Positions 25,032 through 62,973 are shown, numbered from the stretch's first letter. The stretch is DNA of 64,000 nucleotides from Candidatus Kapaibacterium sp. (GCA_032027125.1 JAVSMQ010000001.1:3241620-3305619); one strand, 5' to 3'. A program made the numbers and translations. The notes: a model not told the origin generated them from the letters alone.

Positions 25032-25694
25032 TTATTTTTCTTCCAATTTTGTTACTAATGTTTCAACCCAATTCCTAAATCTCGGGCATTTTTCAATAAT
25101 TGCTTCTATTCCAATTTCCTGAGCTATAAGATTTCCATAAACAATCTTGTTGTAATCCTTAATAATATCCAATAATCTTTTTGATGGTGCAGTATTTGGA
25201 TTATCATTTATATCTTCGGGATTCGGGTATTTGTCGATAATATTTTCAATATCTTTAATAACTCTGGGTTCCGAACTCCAAAAAGAATTAAACCCTTTAT
25301 TTGATGAGAATAACAAAGCTTCAAACTCATAAAGTTGAATATAAGGTAGAAATCTGTCGTCAGATATATTATCCTTCATAGCTCTTTCTAATGCTTCTAC
25401 TTTAAGATTTGATGTTCTTAATTTCATTGATTGATCATATTTCGGAACGTTAGTTGGAATTTTAAAAAAATCTACTAAAGTTGAAACGAAAATATCTGAT
25501 TGGCTTTTTAATAATCTATTTACATCATTTTTTAAATGTTCATAATTAACAAATCCACCTTTTTGACTTTTACTAGTTTGAATCTTAATAGGATGTACAA
25601 CATAAATATTCTTTGAGATTAAATAGTTCCGCAGTATGGTTTTTACGAATTCTTCTTCAGTCTGACCTTCAACAATAATAAATAATCGTTTCAT
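25032..25694 (-). CDS. DUF4276-like protein (Toprim-like putative nuclease partner of an AAA ATPase)
   Basis: 220 aa. N-terminal MKRLFIIVEGQTEEEFV (acidic E-G-x-T-E in a beta-strand context, as in Toprim/OLD-type folds). Conserved YEFEALLFS block. Start overlaps the stop of the upstream ATPase (ATGA at 25694). Confidence 0.55.
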   Translation of the reverse strand: MKRLFIIVEGQTEEEFVKTILRNYLISKNIYVVHPIKIQTSKSQKGGFVNYEHLKNDVNRLLKSQSDIFVSTLVDFFKIPTNVPKYDQSMKLRTSNLKVEALERAMKDNISDDRFLPYIQLYEFEALLFSSNKGFNSFWSSEPRVIKDIENIIDKYPNPEDINDNPNTAPSKRLLDIIKDYNKIVYGNLIAQEIGIEAIIEKCPRFRNWVETLVTKLEEK

Positions 25695-26782
25695 TAAGGT
25701 TTGCCTCCGATTACATTCTTTTCCCAGAGTTCACCTATTGTATAATCTTCAAGCCAGTCTTTTAAATTTTCTTTTGATAATCTTTTAAAAACTGACTGTT
25801 TTTCTTCTCTATCCACAACTAAAATATTTTCAGGTTCAAAATTTTCTATTAAATTTACTGATTGTGTTGAAATAATTACCTGAGTTTTTTGTGAGGCACT
25901 CAATATTAACCCTGCAAGTTTATTTATTGCAAAAGGGTGTAATCCCAGTTCCGGTTCGTCAATAATAATCGTCTTTGGTAGATGAGGTTGTAATAATAAA
26001 GTAGCTAAACAAATAAATCTCAGTGACCCATCTGATAAATTATTAGCATCAAAATATGTATCTGTACCGGTTTCTTTCCATTCGATTTTTATAAAATCGG
26101 GATTAAGGGCTAATGGTTTTAAATCAAATTCATTAAAATAAGGTGCAACAGATTTAATTGTACTTTCGATTAAATTAAAATTCTTAGGATATTTATATTT
26201 CAATAAATATAGAAATGCTGATAAATTACTGGCATCCATTCTTAAAAAACTATTATCGTTTATATTACACGATTTCTTTACTTTAGCTGTATTACTTGTG
26301 TCATTAAAATGGAATACTTTAAATCCTCTTAAATAATCGTTAATAAATTTGTATCTACCTGTCTGCTTGTCTTTTAATGAACTTTCTGAATGACCTCGTA
26401 ACCAAGTATCATCTTTCCACTTTGGAGTTTTTTCTTTTTTGTCATAATTTGTATTAAAACCATTTGTCTCATAATCAAAGTAAAATGTTCCTGAATTTGT
26501 AGTATTTAATGATAATTCGTAGCAATTTGTATTTTCAAAGAAAATTTTTGTGTATATCCGATTTGTTACTTTTGAACCAAAATATAAAAGGTTGTCAGCT
26601 CCTCCCTGTTCTAAAGTGTAGTTTTGAAGATTTTTATCATAAATGTTACTTAACATTTCAAAAAAAGATATAAAATTGCTTTTACCCACACCATTAGCTC
26701 CTATTAGTATATTTAGATTTGATAATTCAATTTCTAAATTCCTAATCGATTTGTAACCTTGAATAAGTATTTTATTTATCAT
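25694..26782 (-). CDS. AAA_15/AAA_21-type ABC-like ATPase (OLD/PARIS-AriA/AbiLi-like)
   Basis: 362 aa. Walker A GANGVGKSN within the first 40 aa. ABC-type signature-like LSDGSLRF. Walker B IIIDEPELGLHP. The long insertion between A and B is typical of the SMC/OLD-like AAA_15/21 clade. Confidence 0.7.
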   Translation of the reverse strand: MINKILIQGYKSIRNLEIELSNLNILIGANGVGKSNFISFFEMLSNIYDKNLQNYTLEQGGADNLLYFGSKVTNRIYTKIFFENTNCYELSLNTTNSGTFYFDYETNGFNTNYDKKEKTPKWKDDTWLRGHSESSLKDKQTGRYKFINDYLRGFKVFHFNDTSNTAKVKKSCNINDNSFLRMDASNLSAFLYLLKYKYPKNFNLIESTIKSVAPYFNEFDLKPLALNPDFIKIEWKETGTDTYFDANNLSDGSLRFICLATLLLQPHLPKTIIIDEPELGLHPFAINKLAGLILSASQKTQVIISTQSVNLIENFEPENILVVDREEKQSVFKRLSKENLKDWLEDYTIGELWEKNVIGGKP

Positions 26783-56419: not shown

Positions 56420-58426
56420 ATGACCAGGCTGTATTTAGTTTTTATCTGTTTCGTGCTTTTGACAATATCTGATTTGAAATCTGACACAATTTATTGGGCA
56501 GATAAGGTTGTCGGCATTTCTTCCCAGATGAGTAATAAGGAGTTTTCAGCATCCCAGGTTTTGGGCAAACCGAGTATCATACCTTCTCAAGGCAAGACTG
56601 CAGCAGCATGGATGCCCAAATTCCCGATTTACAGGATTGAATGGCTAAGGGTCAAATTTACGGAGAAAATATTTGTAAATCAGATTTTAATTAACGAGAA
56701 TTTTAATCCGGGTGCAATTGTCAAAATTATTCTTTATGATTCTCTTGATAACGGGATTCTTGTTTATTCAAATCACAAAGTAAGTAATTCTCCCGGTGCG
56801 GGGAAATTATCAAAATTCGATATTGATAAGACAAACTTTAGAACAGATGAATTAAAAATTGAAGTAAATTTAACTAATTATCTCGACGAATACCAGATTG
56901 ATGCCGTCGGTATTGCTGACTATATCAGCAGTTATGAAGTAAAAATTAACCATGCCGATGATACTTTGAATTATGAAAAAGAAAAATTCGGTGATAATAT
57001 AAATAGTCAGTATAGAGAACTTGGACCTATAATATCACAGGACGGCAAAACACTTGTTTTTACGCGTGAAGGACATCCTGATAATATCGGAATTCAAAAG
57101 AGACAGGATGTATGGATATCTAAAGCGGACGAAAAAGGTGAATTCCAAAAAGCATATAACATTGGTGAGCCGATTAATAATGAGATGACCAATTTTGCAA
57201 TTTCTATTTCGACAAACGCTAATTCAATATTTCTCGGTAATAAATATTTACCGGACGGAACATCAAAGCCGGGTTTTTCCGAAAGTCATTTTGATGGAAT
57301 TCGATGGTCATTTCCGGATTCAATAATCATCAGAGATTATTATAATTTATATCCTTTTTCAAGTTTTTGTCTTGGAAGTAACGGCAAAATACTCATTACG
57401 GCAATTAAACGTGAAGATAGTTTCGGAAAATCAGACCTTTATGTGAGTTTTCTGGATGATGACAGTACATGGACTGCTCCGAAAAGTCTTGGTAAAGTTA
57501 TAAATACTGCTGAAGAAGAATTATCTCCTTTTCTTGCAAGTGACAATAAAACTTTGTATTTTTCAACCCAGGGGCTGCCGGGATTTGGCAATAGTGATAT
57601 GTACGTATCCCGCAGACTTGATGAGAGCTGGACTAACTGGTCAGAACCGGTTAACTTAGGTCCCAATATAAATACCGACGGCTGGGATGCTTATTACACA
57701 GTCACAGGCGACGGACAATATGCTTATTTTGTTTCATCATTTGATACACGTACCGCAGAAGATATTTACAGAGTTAAACTGCCTGTTTCAGTAAAACCCG
57801 ATGCTGTTGTATTGGTCAGGGGTAAGGTTATAAATCAGAAAACCGGTAAACCGCTGGCTGCAGATATTCATTACGAAATTCTACCTGAAGGATTCGAAGC
57901 CGGAATTGCAAAATCAAATCCAAAGACCGGTGATTACAGTATTATACTGCCTGCAGGAAAAAACTACGGATTTCTTGCGACATCAAAAGGATTTGCATCA
58001 ATTAATGAGAATATTGATTTAAAAGACATCAGGCAGTATAATGAAATATCAAGGGATTTGTTTCTGGTTCCGATAGAAACAGGTCAGACTGTAAGAATTA
58101 ATAATATATTCTTTAATTACGGTGAGTTTGAATTGCTGCCTGAGTCATATTCTGAGTTAAACAGGCTTGTAAAGTTTCTCAATGAAAATCCACTGATGAA
58201 AATTCAAATCAGCGGACATACTGATAACATCGGCAGTGATATTTTCAACAAAGAACTTTCACTCAAAAGGGCTGAATCTGTATATGATTTTTTAAAACTG
58301 AAGAATATAAATTCTTCCAGACTTAAAATTGCAGGATTTGGAATGAATAAGCCTATTGCAAAAAACAATACCGAAGAAGGCAGAAGTAAAAACCGAAGGG
58401 TAGAGTTTCTGATACTCGAAAATTAA
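56420..58426 (+). CDS. OmpA-family protein with TolB/PD40-like beta-propeller repeats
   Basis: Signal peptide. PD40-like repeats (…YFSTQGLPGFGNSDMYVS…). C-terminal OmpA/MotB peptidoglycan-binding domain (…ISGHTDNIGSDIFNKELSLKRAESV…NRRVEF). Confidence 0.75.
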   Translation: MTRLYLVFICFVLLTISDLKSDTIYWADKVVGISSQMSNKEFSASQVLGKPSIIPSQGKTAAAWMPKFPIYRIEWLRVKFTEKIFVNQILINENFNPGAIVKIILYDSLDNGILVYSNHKVSNSPGAGKLSKFDIDKTNFRTDELKIEVNLTNYLDEYQIDAVGIADYISSYEVKINHADDTLNYEKEKFGDNINSQYRELGPIISQDGKTLVFTREGHPDNIGIQKRQDVWISKADEKGEFQKAYNIGEPINNEMTNFAISISTNANSIFLGNKYLPDGTSKPGFSESHFDGIRWSFPDSIIIRDYYNLYPFSSFCLGSNGKILITAIKREDSFGKSDLYVSFLDDDSTWTAPKSLGKVINTAEEELSPFLASDNKTLYFSTQGLPGFGNSDMYVSRRLDESWTNWSEPVNLGPNINTDGWDAYYTVTGDGQYAYFVSSFDTRTAEDIYRVKLPVSVKPDAVVLVRGKVINQKTGKPLAADIHYEILPEGFEAGIAKSNPKTGDYSIILPAGKNYGFLATSKGFASINENIDLKDIRQYNEISRDLFLVPIETGQTVRINNIFFNYGEFELLPESYSELNRLVKFLNENPLMKIQISGHTDNIGSDIFNKELSLKRAESVYDFLKLKNINSSRLKIAGFGMNKPIAKNNTEEGRSKNRRVEFLILEN

Positions 58427-58447
58427 TATATTTCTTAAAGGCACATA

Positions 58448-59068
58448 TTAAACACCGCTGTATCTGTCACCGGCATCACCCAGTCCGGGCATGATATATT
58501 TCTTTTGGTTAAGTTCGCGGTCTAAGGCGGCTGTTATAATTCTGATTTTCGGGAATGATGTTCTAATCTTATCTACACCTTCTGGAGCTGAAATAACAGA
58601 AACAATTGTCATATCACTAACTCCTTCAAGTTGTAGTTTGTTAATTGCTGCAGAAGTAGAGCCGCCGGTTGCGAGCATAATCTCAAGTAATATAACTTTG
58701 TCGTCAGGATTTATCTGCGGCATTGAAAAATAATATTCTTCAGCTTCGAAAGTAACTTCGTTTCGTCTCAAACCGATATAACCGAGCACACATTCGGGAT
58801 AAACCGTTTGAAAAGCACTTACCAGACCAAGCCCTGCCCTCAAAACCGGAACTATAACGACTTTCCCCCTGATAACTGCACCTGATGTAATTTCCATAGG
58901 AGTTTTCACATCAATAATATCCACAGCTAAATCATCTGTTGAGGAAACAGCTAAATGAATTCCAATTCTATATGCAGCATTTCTGAATGCTTCGGTGCCG
59001 GAAATTTCATCTCTTAAAATTCTAAGGTCATTCTGCACTAACGGATGATTGAGTATTGTAATCATCAA
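58448..59068 (-). CDS. upp: uracil phosphoribosyltransferase
   Basis: PRPP-binding LLEIMLATGGS and C-terminal YIMPGLGDAGDR. Confidence 0.9.
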   Translation of the reverse strand: MMITILNHPLVQNDLRILRDEISGTEAFRNAAYRIGIHLAVSSTDDLAVDIIDVKTPMEITSGAVIRGKVVIVPVLRAGLGLVSAFQTVYPECVLGYIGLRRNEVTFEAEEYYFSMPQINPDDKVILLEIMLATGGSTSAAINKLQLEGVSDMTIVSVISAPEGVDKIRTSFPKIRIITAALDRELNQKKYIMPGLGDAGDRYSGV

Positions 59069-59073
59069 AACAC

Positions 59074-60516
59074 CTATATATCAGGGTAGAAAATTAAATT
59101 AACTCGTGGAATTGAAAAGAAAGTAGAAACCTCAACAGGGTTATTTTCCTGTTTTCCCTTAGGTAAACGAGAGTCATAATCAAATTTTTGTTTTGAAAGC
59201 ATAAAGTCGAGTTTCCATTCAGCCGAAATGGTAATAAGTCCTGCACCCTGAATAGGAATATTAAAGAAAAAACCCAAACCTGTATTTATACCCAAGCTGT
59301 TTCTTTCTTCAAAACCGCCGCTTGGATTACCGTATGAATTAAGAAGATAAGACGGTCCGACAAATCCATACAGATTAATCTTACCATGCGGGTTTACTAA
59401 AAAATTTGCAGATAATTCAATCTGGCGGTGAGTATTAGGTTCGAGATTATCAAATTCTTCCTGAAGTTTTGTATTTTTTGAATACACATAACTGCCGCTA
59501 AGAATCAAATAATCGGTTAGACTATAATGTACAATACCTCCAAATGCGAACAAACCCTCGTAAGAAATGTTGTTTGGTCTGGGTGTAAAAGATTCGACAA
59601 TAGTATTTGAACCGAAAACAGGTCCAAAACCAAATGTTTTATTATATGATGCCTGCAATGGCTCCTCTTCGTCGTAATACTGGTCATCAATCTCACCATC
59701 CTGTGCATACGAACTGAGTGAAGAAAATACAAACATTAATAAAAAGCTAAGAATTCCGAAAAACTTTTTTGCATTTTGAGTAGTCATTTTAATTACCTCG
59801 TCTATTTCAATATTTTTAATTTCTGCAATTTTACCGGCAACATACTTGACGTATGAAGGTTCATTTCGTTTCCCTCTAAAAGGTACGGGAGTCATATACG
59901 GAGAATCAGTTTCAATCATAAATCTGTCCATAGGAACATTTTTAACTGCTTCTAAGGCATCAAATTTTTTAAAAGTGACATTTCCTGTAAAAGAAACATT
60001 AAAATTCAAGTCCAGCACTTTTGCAATCATATCTTCATTACCATAGAAGCAATGGAAAACACCTCTTAGGTTTCCATCTTGTGCATTACCAACTATTTCC
60101 AACAAATCTTCATCAGAATCTCGGTTATGAACAATTACCGGCAAACCTAAATCTTTTGCAATTTCCAACTGGTCGCGAAAACCCTTTTTCTGAACATCAA
60201 CGGGAGCAAAATCATAAAAGTAATCCAGTCCGATTTCACCGATAGCAACCACTTTCCTGTCATTTTTTGCCAAATCGTATATCTCATTAAGAATAGAAGA
60301 ATTTATCTCCTTAGCATTGTGAGGATGAATTCCCAGACCACAGTATATTTTATCACTTAACCGGCAAACATCAAACAGGCTGTCAAATCTTCGCGGTTCA
60401 ATTGCGGGTATTATAATTGATTCAACACCGCCATTGAATGCCCTGTCTAAAACCTCTAAACGGTCATTGTCAAAATCAGCCGAATCTATATGAGCATGAG
60501 TATCTATCAAGCTCAA
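59074..60516 (-). CDS. TatD-family metal-dependent hydrolase fused in-frame to a signal-peptide + beta-barrel-like domain
   Basis: N-terminal 255 aa is TatD (DTHAHID…, HxH, and the usual C-terminal TxxNAxxFFG motif). It runs without a stop into MTTQNAKKFFGILSFLLMFVFSSLSSYAQ. That segment is a textbook signal peptide with an internal ATG preceded by GAGGT. About 215 aa of alternating-hydrophobic OMP-like sequence follows. Confidence 0.6.
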   Translation of the reverse strand: MSLIDTHAHIDSADFDNDRLEVLDRAFNGGVESIIIPAIEPRRFDSLFDVCRLSDKIYCGLGIHPHNAKEINSSILNEIYDLAKNDRKVVAIGEIGLDYFYDFAPVDVQKKGFRDQLEIAKDLGLPVIVHNRDSDEDLLEIVGNAQDGNLRGVFHCFYGNEDMIAKVLDLNFNVSFTGNVTFKKFDALEAVKNVPMDRFMIETDSPYMTPVPFRGKRNEPSYVKYVAGKIAEIKNIEIDEVIKMTTQNAKKFFGILSFLLMFVFSSLSSYAQDGEIDDQYYDEEEPLQASYNKTFGFGPVFGSNTIVESFTPRPNNISYEGLFAFGGIVHYSLTDYLILSGSYVYSKNTKLQEEFDNLEPNTHRQIELSANFLVNPHGKINLYGFVGPSYLLNSYGNPSGGFEERNSLGINTGLGFFFNIPIQGAGLITISAEWKLDFMLSKQKFDYDSRLPKGKQENNPVEVSTFFSIPRVNLIFYPDI

Positions 60517-60983
60517 CCCTTTAATTCATTGAGTTTTGAAATAACTTCATCTACATGTCCATCAACATTTACTTTATTAAAGACGTATTCGATTTTTCCT
60601 TTTGGTGATATGATGTAAGTAGTTCGAATTACACCTAAATATTTTTTCCCGAACATAGATTTTTCACCAATAATGTCATAACTTTTACAAATCGTCTTAT
60701 CAGGGTCAGCTAATAGTGCAAAGTTTAAATCATATTTTACTTTAAACTTATCATGTGAATTTACTTTATCAGTACTTACACCTAAAACAACTGCACCCAT
60801 AGAAGTAATTCTTTCCATATTATCACGAAACTCGCAGGCTTCTTTTGTACAGCCGGATGTATCATCTTTAGGATAGAAATAAAGGATTACCCATTTCCCT
60901 GCAAAATCACTTAATTTTACAGAAAGTCCGCCGTCAGTCTGAGCAGTAAAATTCGGTGCTTTTACACCTTTTTCCAAAGCCAT
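60513..60983 (-). CDS. bcp: peroxiredoxin Bcp (AhpC/TSA family)
   Basis: FYPKDDTSGCTKEAC peroxidatic Cys motif. Confidence 0.85.
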   Translation of the reverse strand: MALEKGVKAPNFTAQTDGGLSVKLSDFAGKWVILYFYPKDDTSGCTKEACEFRDNMERITSMGAVVLGVSTDKVNSHDKFKVKYDLNFALLADPDKTICKSYDIIGEKSMFGKKYLGVIRTTYIISPKGKIEYVFNKVNVDGHVDEVISKLNELKG

Positions 60984-60984
60984 A

Positions 60985-62658
60985 TTATCTCTCCTTACTA
61001 TGGTCCATTAATAATTCCGCTCCAAAATCTTCAATCAGCATCCTTTCGACAGGATGTAAATTCGGGTCGGAAATGTTGTTTATAGTCTTTTCTTTAGACG
61101 TTGGTAGGCTGTTTAAGTTGTTTGGAATAATATCGGATTGGTAATTCGGAGTCGTTGTGGGCTTTGATTTAACTTCAATCTCAAATTTTATTATCAAATC
61201 AAATAAATTTTCAACTATTAATGAGAGTCCTTCTAACTTTCTATCTAAATAGTTCCTTTCAAATTCAGACTCACAAGTCAGAATTACTGTTCTGCCCTTA
61301 AGTTCGGGTTTAAAGGCATCAAGTTTAAATCCGGCTTTCAGAATTTCATCAAGTTTTATAAAATCGTTCCATTCAGCCAAAAACTCCTCGGGACTTAGTT
61401 TACGTTTGGGTGTTATATCCGGTATTTCTTTCACTGGCGAGGCCGATGATGTATAGGTTTTGGATTGTTCCTGTAAATTCAAATCGCTATTTGAATTACT
61501 ATTATGATTAATCAACCCCTTTTTTTTTACTGCTCTCAGTTCATTAATCAGCTCAGCAATGTCGGTTGTGGAATCAATGTGAGCAAGCTGTAGAAGAGCA
61601 AGTTCAAAACGGATTCTCGGCTGCGGGCTGTACTTCAGGGATTGTTCAGCCTGAGCAATATGATTCATCATACGGATTAAATCCAACTTGCCGAACTTTT
61701 TTGATTCCTCGAGATATTTTGCTTTCATTTGTGACGATGTTTCTAAAATTTCAGGGTCATTTGTAACTTTCACCGCCGTAAGATTACGTAAATGCTCAAG
61801 TAATCCCTGAAGAGTCTCCTGAAAATCGTAACCTTTGCGGACAACATTACCCACGAGTTCAAAAACCGAAGCTGTATTCTTTTCCAAAACAGCAGAGGTA
61901 ATACGAAAGAAAAATTCTTCATCAATTAAATGCAACGCATCAGCAAGCTCTGAATATACTACATTTTTTCCGCAAAACGAAATAACCTGGTCAAATATAC
62001 TTTGCGAATCCCGCATGGAACCGTCACCTTTTTTGGCAATAGTAACAAGCGATTCTTCATCAATCGTAACCCCTTCTTTTCCAGCTATAAATTCAATTTG
62101 CTTTTTGATGTCTTCGATTTCCATTCTTCGAAAATCGAATCTCTGGCATCGGCTTGTTATTGTTGCAAGTACTTTATGAACTTCAGTTGTAGCAAACACA
62201 AACAGTAAATGCGGGGGCGGTTCCTCCAATGTTTTTAGAAGTGCGTTAAATGCCGCATTCGAGAGCATGTGCACTTCATCAATGATATACATTTTATATT
62301 TACCAGTCGAAGGCGGATATTTTGCATTTTCTCTGAGTTTACGTATATCATCAACGGAATTGTTTGAAGCACCGTCAATTTCAATAATATCCATCGAACG
62401 GCCATCCATCACGGCACGGCAGTTATCACATTCATTACAAGGCTCTGCATCCTGAGGATTCAGACAGTTTATCGAACGTGATAAAATTCTTGCAGTTGTT
62501 GTTTTACCAACTCCGCGGGGACCGCTGAAAAGATAAGCATGATGAATCCGGTTCTTTAATACGGCGTTTTTTAGAGTTTGCGTGATATGTTCCTGACCTA
62601 CCACATCTTTAAAAAATAATGGACGCCACTTTCTGGCTGTAACTATAAAGTCATTCAT
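60985..62658 (-). CDS. dnaX: DNA polymerase III subunit gamma/tau
   Basis: Walker A GPRGVGKTTTARI, Zn module C-x-x-C…C-x-x-C, and SRC arginine-finger region. Confidence 0.9.
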   Translation of the reverse strand: MNDFIVTARKWRPLFFKDVVGQEHITQTLKNAVLKNRIHHAYLFSGPRGVGKTTTARILSRSINCLNPQDAEPCNECDNCRAVMDGRSMDIIEIDGASNNSVDDIRKLRENAKYPPSTGKYKMYIIDEVHMLSNAAFNALLKTLEEPPPHLLFVFATTEVHKVLATITSRCQRFDFRRMEIEDIKKQIEFIAGKEGVTIDEESLVTIAKKGDGSMRDSQSIFDQVISFCGKNVVYSELADALHLIDEEFFFRITSAVLEKNTASVFELVGNVVRKGYDFQETLQGLLEHLRNLTAVKVTNDPEILETSSQMKAKYLEESKKFGKLDLIRMMNHIAQAEQSLKYSPQPRIRFELALLQLAHIDSTTDIAELINELRAVKKKGLINHNSNSNSDLNLQEQSKTYTSSASPVKEIPDITPKRKLSPEEFLAEWNDFIKLDEILKAGFKLDAFKPELKGRTVILTCESEFERNYLDRKLEGLSLIVENLFDLIIKFEIEVKSKPTTTPNYQSDIIPNNLNSLPTSKEKTINNISDPNLHPVERMLIEDFGAELLMDHSKER

Positions 62659-62885
62659 ATTCTGTTAAATGAAATATATTGAATGTAAAATTTAAGTAAC
62701 GAATCAAACGGAATATAATTTATAACTTTCCAAAAATGACCGTGTTTATATTTGATTCCAAAATAATAAATCAAAAAGCAGTATATAGTTCCCGCGTGTA
62801 TCATATTGATGAATAGTATCTGAACGAAAAGTAGCAAATATATAGATTGTAAAGAATTGCAAACATTTTATCCCGCGAAGAATTA

Positions 62886-62973
62886 AGACCCCACCCCAAC
62901 CCTCCCCAAGGGGAGGGAGTAGTCAGAGCAAGGTTTTAAAGCCCTCCCCTTGGGGAGGGTTGGGGTGGGGTCT
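62886..62973. repeat. GC-rich nested palindromic element, copy 2 (perfect 32-bp inverted arms)
   Basis: AGACCCCACCCCAACCCTCCCCAAGGGGAGGG (62886-62917) and its exact reverse complement CCCTCCCCTTGGGGAGGGTTGGGGTGGGGTCT (62942-62973). 24-bp spacer. Each arm contains its own CCCTCCCC/GGGGAGGG hairpin. Confidence 0.9.

Follow-up and report, generated by a model that had tools for sequence, protein, structure and literature searches.

A proposed in-frame overlap of a TatD-type hydrolase gene with a predicted outer-membrane barrel gene in Kapaibacteria

A 64,000-nucleotide stretch of DNA from Candidatus Kapaibacterium sp. (GCA_032027125.1 JAVSMQ010000001.1:3241620-3305619; hereafter the window) carries on its minus strand an open reading frame (ORF) of 480 codons, TatD::barrel, in which a TatD-type hydrolase continues without a stop codon into a Sec signal peptide and a predicted 8-stranded outer-membrane beta-barrel. 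We read this ORF as an ancient, fixed in-frame overlap of a housekeeping YcfH/TatD-type hydrolase with a small outer-membrane barrel, in which the final TatD helix, MTTQNAKKFF, would double as the n-region of the barrel’s signal peptide; because this segment would serve both proteins, there is no room between them for a stop codon. In the window’s clade, the barrel would be made mainly as its own 237-residue precursor, translated from an internal ribosome-binding site in which seven bases separate GAGGT from the ATG at 59787. Sec would export this precursor, signal peptidase I would cleave its Ala271-Gln272 bond, and the barrel would then insert into the outer membrane. Initiation at the weak TTG of the TatD part would yield a 480-residue TatD-signal peptide-barrel precursor that inserts with its N-terminus in the cytoplasm and its C-terminus on the far side of the membrane (N-in/C-out) and is cut at the same bond, so that TatD would retain the signal peptide as a membrane segment at its C-terminus and a further barrel molecule would be released. 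Taken as a whole, with a fixed overlap, an internal start as the main source of the barrel and a cleaved read-through precursor, we consider this reading moderately probable.

A single frame across two domains

Positions given here are those of the whole window, and codons and residues are numbered along the 480-residue product of the minus-strand ORF (Table 1). By profile and motifs, residues 1-254 are a complete TatD/YcfH hydrolase. Pfam TatD_DNase (PF01026) matches residues 4-254 over its full model (1-253/253; E 8.8e-82, 274.7 bits against a cut-off of 27), TIGR00010 scores 263.2 bits against a cut-off of 206, and the closest solved structures (PDB 1j6o, 2gzx and 6l25; E 1e-55 to 1e-57) are of T. 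maritima, S. aureus and YcfH TatD proteins. The hydrolase motifs DTHAH, GEIGLD, VHNR, FHCF and ETDSPY are all found in alignment with 1j6o, and we take the metal ligands to lie in them (the N-terminal HxH, the Glu of GEiGLD, two His and the Asp of ETD). Past this domain, the frame runs stop-free through MTTQNAKKFFGILSFLLMFVFSSLSSYA and then QDGEIDD / QDGEIDDQYYDEEE up to the stop codon, leaving 237 codons open after the TatD domain. This is not chance: at 33% guanine plus cytosine (GC), 28 and 60 stops interrupt the two alternative frames of this strand over 480 codons.

The original prediction for this stretch had described a stop-less TatD ORF continuing into a signal peptide and a barrel-like domain, and the ORF, Pfam and TIGR00010 bear it out. 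The frame, the ATG and the GAGGT it listed are all present, with small offsets (ATG at 59787-59785 instead of about 59788; GAGGT at -12 to -8 instead of about -9), and the roughly 215 residues it placed after the signal peptide come to 209.

The same continuous frame is found in relatives. A search with the 237-residue part returned four, of which two carry TatD and two begin at a contig edge, where the upstream codons are open and read as a TatD tail. A genome scan with one genome per species gave 22 loci, all in metagenome-assembled genomes (MAGs) of Kapaibacteria/Ignavibacteria type, and in 22/22 a single frame of 474-556 codons takes in TatD from its start, the hydrophobic segment and the barrel; the frame is also continuous in 7/7 metagenome loci without indel disruption. 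An exhaustive profile search of 1.84 billion representative proteins found the barrel in 64 only. Those with a full-length barrel are all 465-543 residues long, with the barrel beginning at residue ~241-270 (~350-360 in two members with longer linkers), and the shorter matches of the barrel profile are mostly fragments, so that, on the evidence of these searches, the barrel family occurs almost only as a TatD fusion. Neither the 480-residue nor the 237-residue product has an exact counterpart in a collection of 15 billion proteins. Fused members span 29% to 62% GC, and in relatives with GC contents of 53% and 62% the fusion persists together with the gene order bcp-tatD::barrel-upp.

Conservation of this kind bears on the simplest alternative, namely that two separate genes only seem joined through an error of sequencing or assembly, or became joined when this genome recently lost the stop codon of TatD. 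Broken frames do occur in some relatives: one long-read locus (L026), in which upp is also fragmented, and two others (L027 and L028), which have 1-nt deletions. However, the 22 genome loci and the seven indel-free metagenome loci come from independent assemblies and share the open frame, the barrels are only 32-71% identical across the genome loci and form no stand-alone family, and fusion and gene order are kept in relatives, which excludes such an accident at any but a very slight probability. Of the options that the original prediction had put forward, the artefact is thereby refuted, and the lost stop holds as an ancient fixed fusion (29-62% GC, with the barrel essentially never alone) but not as a recent lesion. 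In relatives, which it had proposed to inspect for a stop after the TatD tail, the ORF is continuous wherever indels do not disrupt it, and as far as the ORF goes this is the outcome that it had named as refuting its view.

Some individual loci deserve separate mention. In L026 (L026:3001-4724; contig_33, ERZ21831144), a close relative, TatD seems to stop at ...NAKKLF, parts of the barrel are found in different frames and upp is shortened to 78 residues; judged from these frames, the apparent unfused state is long-read indel noise. P0079, a 250-residue TatD that ends in ...NAKKLF on a 127-kb contig, was considered as an unfused relative and rejected, as it comes from a long-read assembly with barrel pieces in other frames and a fragmented upp. 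P0043 (238 residues, with its own N-terminal signal peptide) may be a stand-alone barrel, but has an unrelated and perhaps chimeric N-terminal part. One sub-lineage (L027:3721-3830 and L028:2005-2135; P0071, P0074, P0075), which has an in-frame sister in P0032, retains an intact Shine-Dalgarno (SD)-like GAGGAG, ATG and h-region, and carries a 1-nt deletion within the h-region that places the barrel in the -1 frame, open for ~230 codons. The missing base differs by contig (CTTTT-GGAC versus CTTTTTGG-C), and the deletion could be a sequencing error at 3x coverage, recent decay, slippage or something else. The order bcp-tatD::barrel-upp recurs in L026, L029 and L030; elsewhere the fused gene stands next to others (ftsY/Nramp, heme oxygenase).

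The candidate internal start

Met244, at the junction of the two domains, is likely to be used as a start of its own, in view of the bases that precede it and of the codons chosen to spell them. AGGT stands at -11 to -8 in 26/26 loci that bear the junction ATG. In the Glu240 column, Glu is encoded by GAG 19 times and by GAA never (19:0), with GAG making up 21% of all Glu codons in these ORFs. At other conserved Glu columns GAA prevails (21:0, 20:3, 17:2 and similar), and Glu that precedes a GTN codon, with column 240 excluded, is written as 46 GAA versus 11 GAG. Where Lys or Gln takes the place of Glu240, the codon is AAG or CAG, so that AGGT is kept, and the third position of codon 240 is G in 22/22. 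Median third-position identity in the alignment is 0.39, near saturation; a third position is conserved to at least 95% in only 8/468 columns, and among these codon 240 alone opposes the AT bias. This pattern suggests that, in the window’s clade, the ribosome-binding site is constrained beyond the protein code.

The motif and the ATG also come and go together. Five fused relatives (L029, L030, L031, L032 and L033) have GCC, GCC, TTA, CAA and TCC at the ATG site; their motif-site codons read GAG ATC, CAC GTG, GAA ATT, GAA ACC and GAT GTT, and the motif is present in 0/5, making the co-occurrence perfect (26/26 with the ATG versus 0/5 without it). A Met at the junction is found in 35/49 transmembrane (TM)-fused TatDs, versus 4/98 of TatDs that are unfused or fused to a radical-SAM domain, where the usual residues are I, A, V, K and Q; among the radical-SAM-fused TatDs it is found in 0/13. 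In the window’s genes, a 4-mer SD sequence precedes 53% of crude starts versus 9% of internal in-frame ATGs, and real starts, including those of the neighbouring upp and bcp, bear AGGTG, GAGGT, AGGAG or AAGGA from -9 to -15, a spacing like that of the internal ATG. Upstream of the TatD TTG there is only a weak AAAGGG. The nested in-frame gene that the original prediction had listed among its options is thus supported in the window’s clade, both by the conserved SD-like motif, which depends on a synonymous choice, and by the fact that motif and ATG always occur together.

Predicted export of the barrel and the read-through product

The n-region of the signal peptide is also the end of the TatD domain, with its positive charges at K250 and K251. 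It is followed by an h-region, GILSFLLMFVFSSLSS, with a hydrophobic core of 16 residues, and by a c-region of S-Y-A with Gln272 at +1. In its sequence features, the segment agrees with the pattern of a signal peptide: a positively charged n-region, an h-region of 10-16 residues, a small residue at both -3 and -1, and Gln at +1. Among 67 family sequences, the -1 residue is A, S or G in 67/67 and the +1 residue is Gln in 63/67, in a scan that favoured Gln whenever there was a choice. Under the Q-rule, substrates of signal peptidase I are marked by Gln at +1; for Ignavibacterium album a Q-value of 77% is reported (PMC5837995), and S|Q also occurs in two clear secreted proteins of the window. Together, the features of this segment argue well, if indirectly, for export and cleavage of the barrel. 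The linker that follows varies in length and sequence across the family alignment and is about 23 residues long in the window; it is predicted to be disordered and is unstructured in the AlphaFold2 (AF2) models, where residues 261-290 have predicted local distance difference test (pLDDT) values of 49-69.

AF2 was run with a 52-sequence alignment, and the full-length ORF product and the internal product were each modelled, at pLDDT 93.4 for the former and 92.1 for the latter alone. Across both models, the architecture is a TatD TIM barrel (1-253), a helix at 255-268 directly after the TatD helix, a low-confidence acidic linker and eight long beta-strands (295-478) that form a closed antiparallel barrel. 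In blocks of 10 residues, the barrel has pLDDT values of 86-98, and there is an extra short stretch at 443-447. Foldseek matches of the barrel in the PDB are exclusively outer-membrane barrels, and the top 10 are all 8-stranded (E 1.5e-7 to 1e-5), led by Ail (3qrc, E 1.5e-7), OmpA-TM, NspA, OmpX, OprF-N and OmpW. The C-terminal part is therefore confidently predicted to be an 8-stranded outer-membrane beta-barrel, and the outer-membrane-protein-like character first proposed for it finds its counterpart in eight strands at pLDDT >90 and in the Foldseek matches. In 37/75 family sequences the protein ends exactly at a [FYW]-P-x-hydrophobic motif, mostly with F, and others have 1-8 further residues; most family members end in ...[FW]YPx[F/W/L].

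A long-linker variant of the same architecture, missed by the barrel profile, may be represented by P0151 (437 residues) and P0137 (321 residues), which look like TatD followed by a signal-peptide-like segment (...SQA|Q and ...AAA|Q), a charged coiled-coil-like stretch of ~90 residues and a Gly-rich, barrel-like start.

These features also bear on the suggestion that the product is an uncleaved bitopic inner-membrane protein, with a cytoplasmic TatD, a permanent signal anchor and a C-domain tethered on the periplasmic side. Such an N-in/C-out single-pass topology with a large cytoplasmic domain is common, and the one continuous helix that AF2 places at 255-268 after the TatD helix would suit an anchor. 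The C-domain, however, is predicted to be a membrane-embedded 8-stranded barrel whose structural matches are outer-membrane barrels only, the linker spans only ~23 residues, the hydrophobic stretch is short (~16-18), and the near-universal small residue followed by Gln is the signal peptidase I signature of this group. We regard a permanent anchor as quite improbable.

What becomes of the long product is a separate matter. Because no stop follows TatD, ribosomes that start at its TTG must carry on through signal peptide and barrel. A stop cannot evolve here without harm, since one placed 5' of the ATG would cut the terminal TatD helix and one placed 3' of it would truncate the barrel precursor; and because any stop would harm one protein, conservation of the open frame alone does not separate the models. 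In the lineages that do not have the junction ATG, h-region, [AGS]-Q site and barrel are all retained; the full-length precursor is then the only possible source of the barrel, which implies that an internal signal peptide behind ~243 cytoplasmic residues is export-competent there. By extension from these lineages, the 480-residue product of the window probably also inserts N-in/C-out, given the positive charges on the TatD side of the hydrophobic segment and the acidic linker on its far side. The original prediction had objected that a cytoplasmic hydrolase fused upstream of a cleavable signal peptide makes no topological sense, an objection that does not stand: a cytoplasmic N-domain, a hydrophobic segment and an exported C-domain make up an ordinary N-in/C-out arrangement, and the ATG-less relatives keep the fusion. 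In a rough neighbour-joining tree of TatD domains, which has no support values and is a hint only, ATG-less members fall mostly near the base of the fused cluster, a placement that fits fusion first and internal start later.

The ATG-less lineages could be taken to mean that the locus encodes a polyprotein only, that is, one 480-residue product targeted to Sec and cut once by signal peptidase I into a membrane-anchored TatD and a free barrel at 1:1, with the ATG and AGGT kept for other reasons. This route must indeed work in the five ATG-less relatives named above, which keep frame, h-region and [AGS]-Q with neither junction ATG nor SD motif, and their mostly basal position in the rough tree would suit it. 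It leaves unexplained, however, the 19:0 preference for GAG, the AGGT-preserving AAG and CAG codons, the perfect co-occurrence of motif and ATG, and the enrichment of Met at the junction (35/49 versus 4/98), and we think it unlikely for the window. In the opposite scenario, only the internal start matters: the 480-residue read-through would be a by-product whose barrel part is not productively exported, and TatD would be soluble or loosely membrane-associated, with its useless tail degraded. The open frame would then persist without any function of the fusion, since a stop truncates the TatD helix or the barrel precursor, and the TatD start is a weak TTG versus SD plus ATG for the barrel. ATG-less lineages could make no barrel under this scenario, yet the barrel sequence and the cleavage motif are conserved in them, and we hold it to be improbable.

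We advance one further claim only tentatively and at somewhat less than an even chance: that the locus encodes a natural polyprotein resolved by signal peptidase I, from which one translation gives an inner-membrane, tail-anchored TatD and an outer-membrane protein. This would be the sole route in the ATG-less lineages, and would operate beside the internal start in the window’s clade, for a total of three polypeptides from one ORF. The literature searched describes no TatD-barrel fusion, and no natural bacterial precursor of an enzyme and an outer-membrane protein processed by signal peptidase I.

Several points weigh against the favoured reading. The 19:0 count and the other codon counts ignore kinship, as they carry no correction for phylogeny, and the SD enrichment (53% versus 9%) holds for the window, the related loci having 4-7 genes each, too few individually. 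The junction Met is missing in ~20-30% of family representatives (9/46 in one alignment; 14/49 TM-fused), and the internal start is for this reason not essential to the architecture. A scan for sigma-70 promoters and terminators across 58300-62900 found 19 promoter-like sites versus 16.2 expected, with no signal above chance; the promoter-like match at 59857-59828, upstream of the internal ATG, is given no weight. As for the barrel, Pfam OMP_b-brl (PF13505) stays below its gathering threshold (22.4 bits, or 19.7 in the full-length protein, versus 28.7), and the window’s C-terminus, ...LIFYPDI, ends in Ile and not in the aromatic residue typical of barrel insertion signals.

Known systems and genomic surroundings

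In-frame proteoforms made by internal initiation are known for IF2 (alpha/beta), ClpB (93/79), CheA (L/S) and SpaO/Spa33, and two-polypeptide phage endolysins are made from single genes (PMC9430671; bioRxiv 10.1101/520783; review PMC13515050). TatD::barrel resembles them in having one ORF, a second in-frame start with its own SD-like motif and a common stop codon. In the known cases, however, the shorter product is a piece of the longer one and plays a related part within one compartment or complex, whereas here a hydrolase and an unrelated outer-membrane barrel would go to different compartments. Furthermore, unlike those proteoforms, the short form of TatD::barrel would gain a signal peptide from the tail of the enzyme domain, and some lineages have the fusion alone.

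Each half has close parallels of its own. Like TatDs of the YcfH/YabD type (PF01026, TIGR00010; 1j6o, 2gzx, 6l25, 1yix), the hydrolase has a full-length match, the metal-ligand motifs and the TTxNAxxxF end helix, but ordinary members stop 2-10 residues after this helix and have I, A, V, K or Q at the Met site, whereas the fused TatD continues for 226 residues. The barrel shares predicted fold, size, Sec signal peptide and hydrophobic and aromatic residues at the end of the last strand with Ail, OmpX, NspA, the N-domains of OmpA and OprF, and OmpW (PF13505); it differs from the known small 8-stranded barrels in its sub-threshold similarity, its acidic Tyr-rich N-terminal linker, its restriction to Kapaibacteria/Ignavibacteria-like lineages and its fusion to TatD. 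The signal peptide, with a small -1 residue and a nearly invariant Gln at +1, is like the Q-rule signal peptides of Bacteroidetes (PMC5837995; PMC10653852), but whereas Q-rule substrates carry theirs at the N-terminus, that of TatD::barrel is also internal, behind a 243-residue cytoplasmic domain.

TatD has also been joined in frame to another partner. Searching with window:59749-60516 (minus strand) brought up in-frame fusions of TatD to Radical_SAM (PF04055, with CxxxCxxC directly following the ...FGIG tail) in Ignavibacteriales MAGs (P0099, P0104, P0152, P0174 and others). Here, too, a TatD from that phylum-level group lacks its stop codon and is read in frame into a downstream function, but the partner is cytoplasmic, there is no signal peptide and a junction Met occurs in 0/13.

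If our reading is true, the locus is a natural case of dual coding, in which the C-terminal helix of an enzyme is the n-region of the signal peptide of an unrelated outer-membrane protein, and two genes are locked into one frame. TatD::barrel would then be a simple, easily mutated system in which to ask to what extent an internal start within a translated ORF can set the ratio of two proteins, and whether, as the ATG-less relatives imply, Sec and signal peptidase I can handle a signal peptide that comes after a folded domain of 243 residues. The NCBI name of the fused members is simply “TatD family hydrolase”, an annotation that misses a predicted outer-membrane protein family found almost only within these genes.

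Table 1. Features of the TatD::barrel ORF, in window coordinates
Feature	Position	Strand	Details and basis
TatD::barrel ORF	59074..60516	minus	480 codons/residues, start TTG, stop codon 59074-59076; hydrolase, signal peptide, acidic linker, 8-stranded barrel
TTGA overlap	60513..60516	minus	TatD TTG start over the TGA stop of upstream bcp (AhpC/TSA; Pfam match)
TatD/YcfH-type metal-dependent hydrolase domain, residues 1-254	59755..60516	minus	Pfam, TIGR00010 and PDB matches
SD-like GAGGT	59795..59799	minus	-12 to -8 from the A of the internal ATG; codons Glu240 (GAG) and Val241 (GTA)
Internal in-frame ATG, Met244	59785..59787	minus	Candidate start of the 237-residue barrel precursor
Predicted signal peptide, M244-A271 (28 residues)	59704..59787	minus	Translation; cleavage YA|Q; family conservation of -1/+1
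Acidic Tyr-rich linker, Q272 to about T294	59635..59703	minus	AF2 low confidence; variable alignment length
Predicted 8-stranded outer-membrane beta-barrel, residues 295-480	59077..59634	minus	Ends ...SIPRVNLIFYPDI; AF2, Foldseek, weak PF13505

In the window, the ORF belongs to a tight minus-strand run at 58448-62658 that comprises dnaX (60985-62658), bcp/AhpC-TSA (60513-60983), tatD::barrel and upp (58448-59068), spaced by gaps of 1, -4 and 5 bases. Convergent with upp on the plus strand (56420-58426) is a gene for a 668-residue protein that combines PD40 beta-propeller repeats with an OmpA peptidoglycan-binding domain at its C-terminus. Elsewhere in the window, on the minus strand at 25032-26782, an AAA_21/AAA_15 ATPase (362 residues, ‘AbiEii-type’ AAA family) is followed by a DUF4276 protein (220 residues, E 3.6e-58), with the ends of the two ORFs overlapping by 1 base; the pair looks like a two-gene accessory module.

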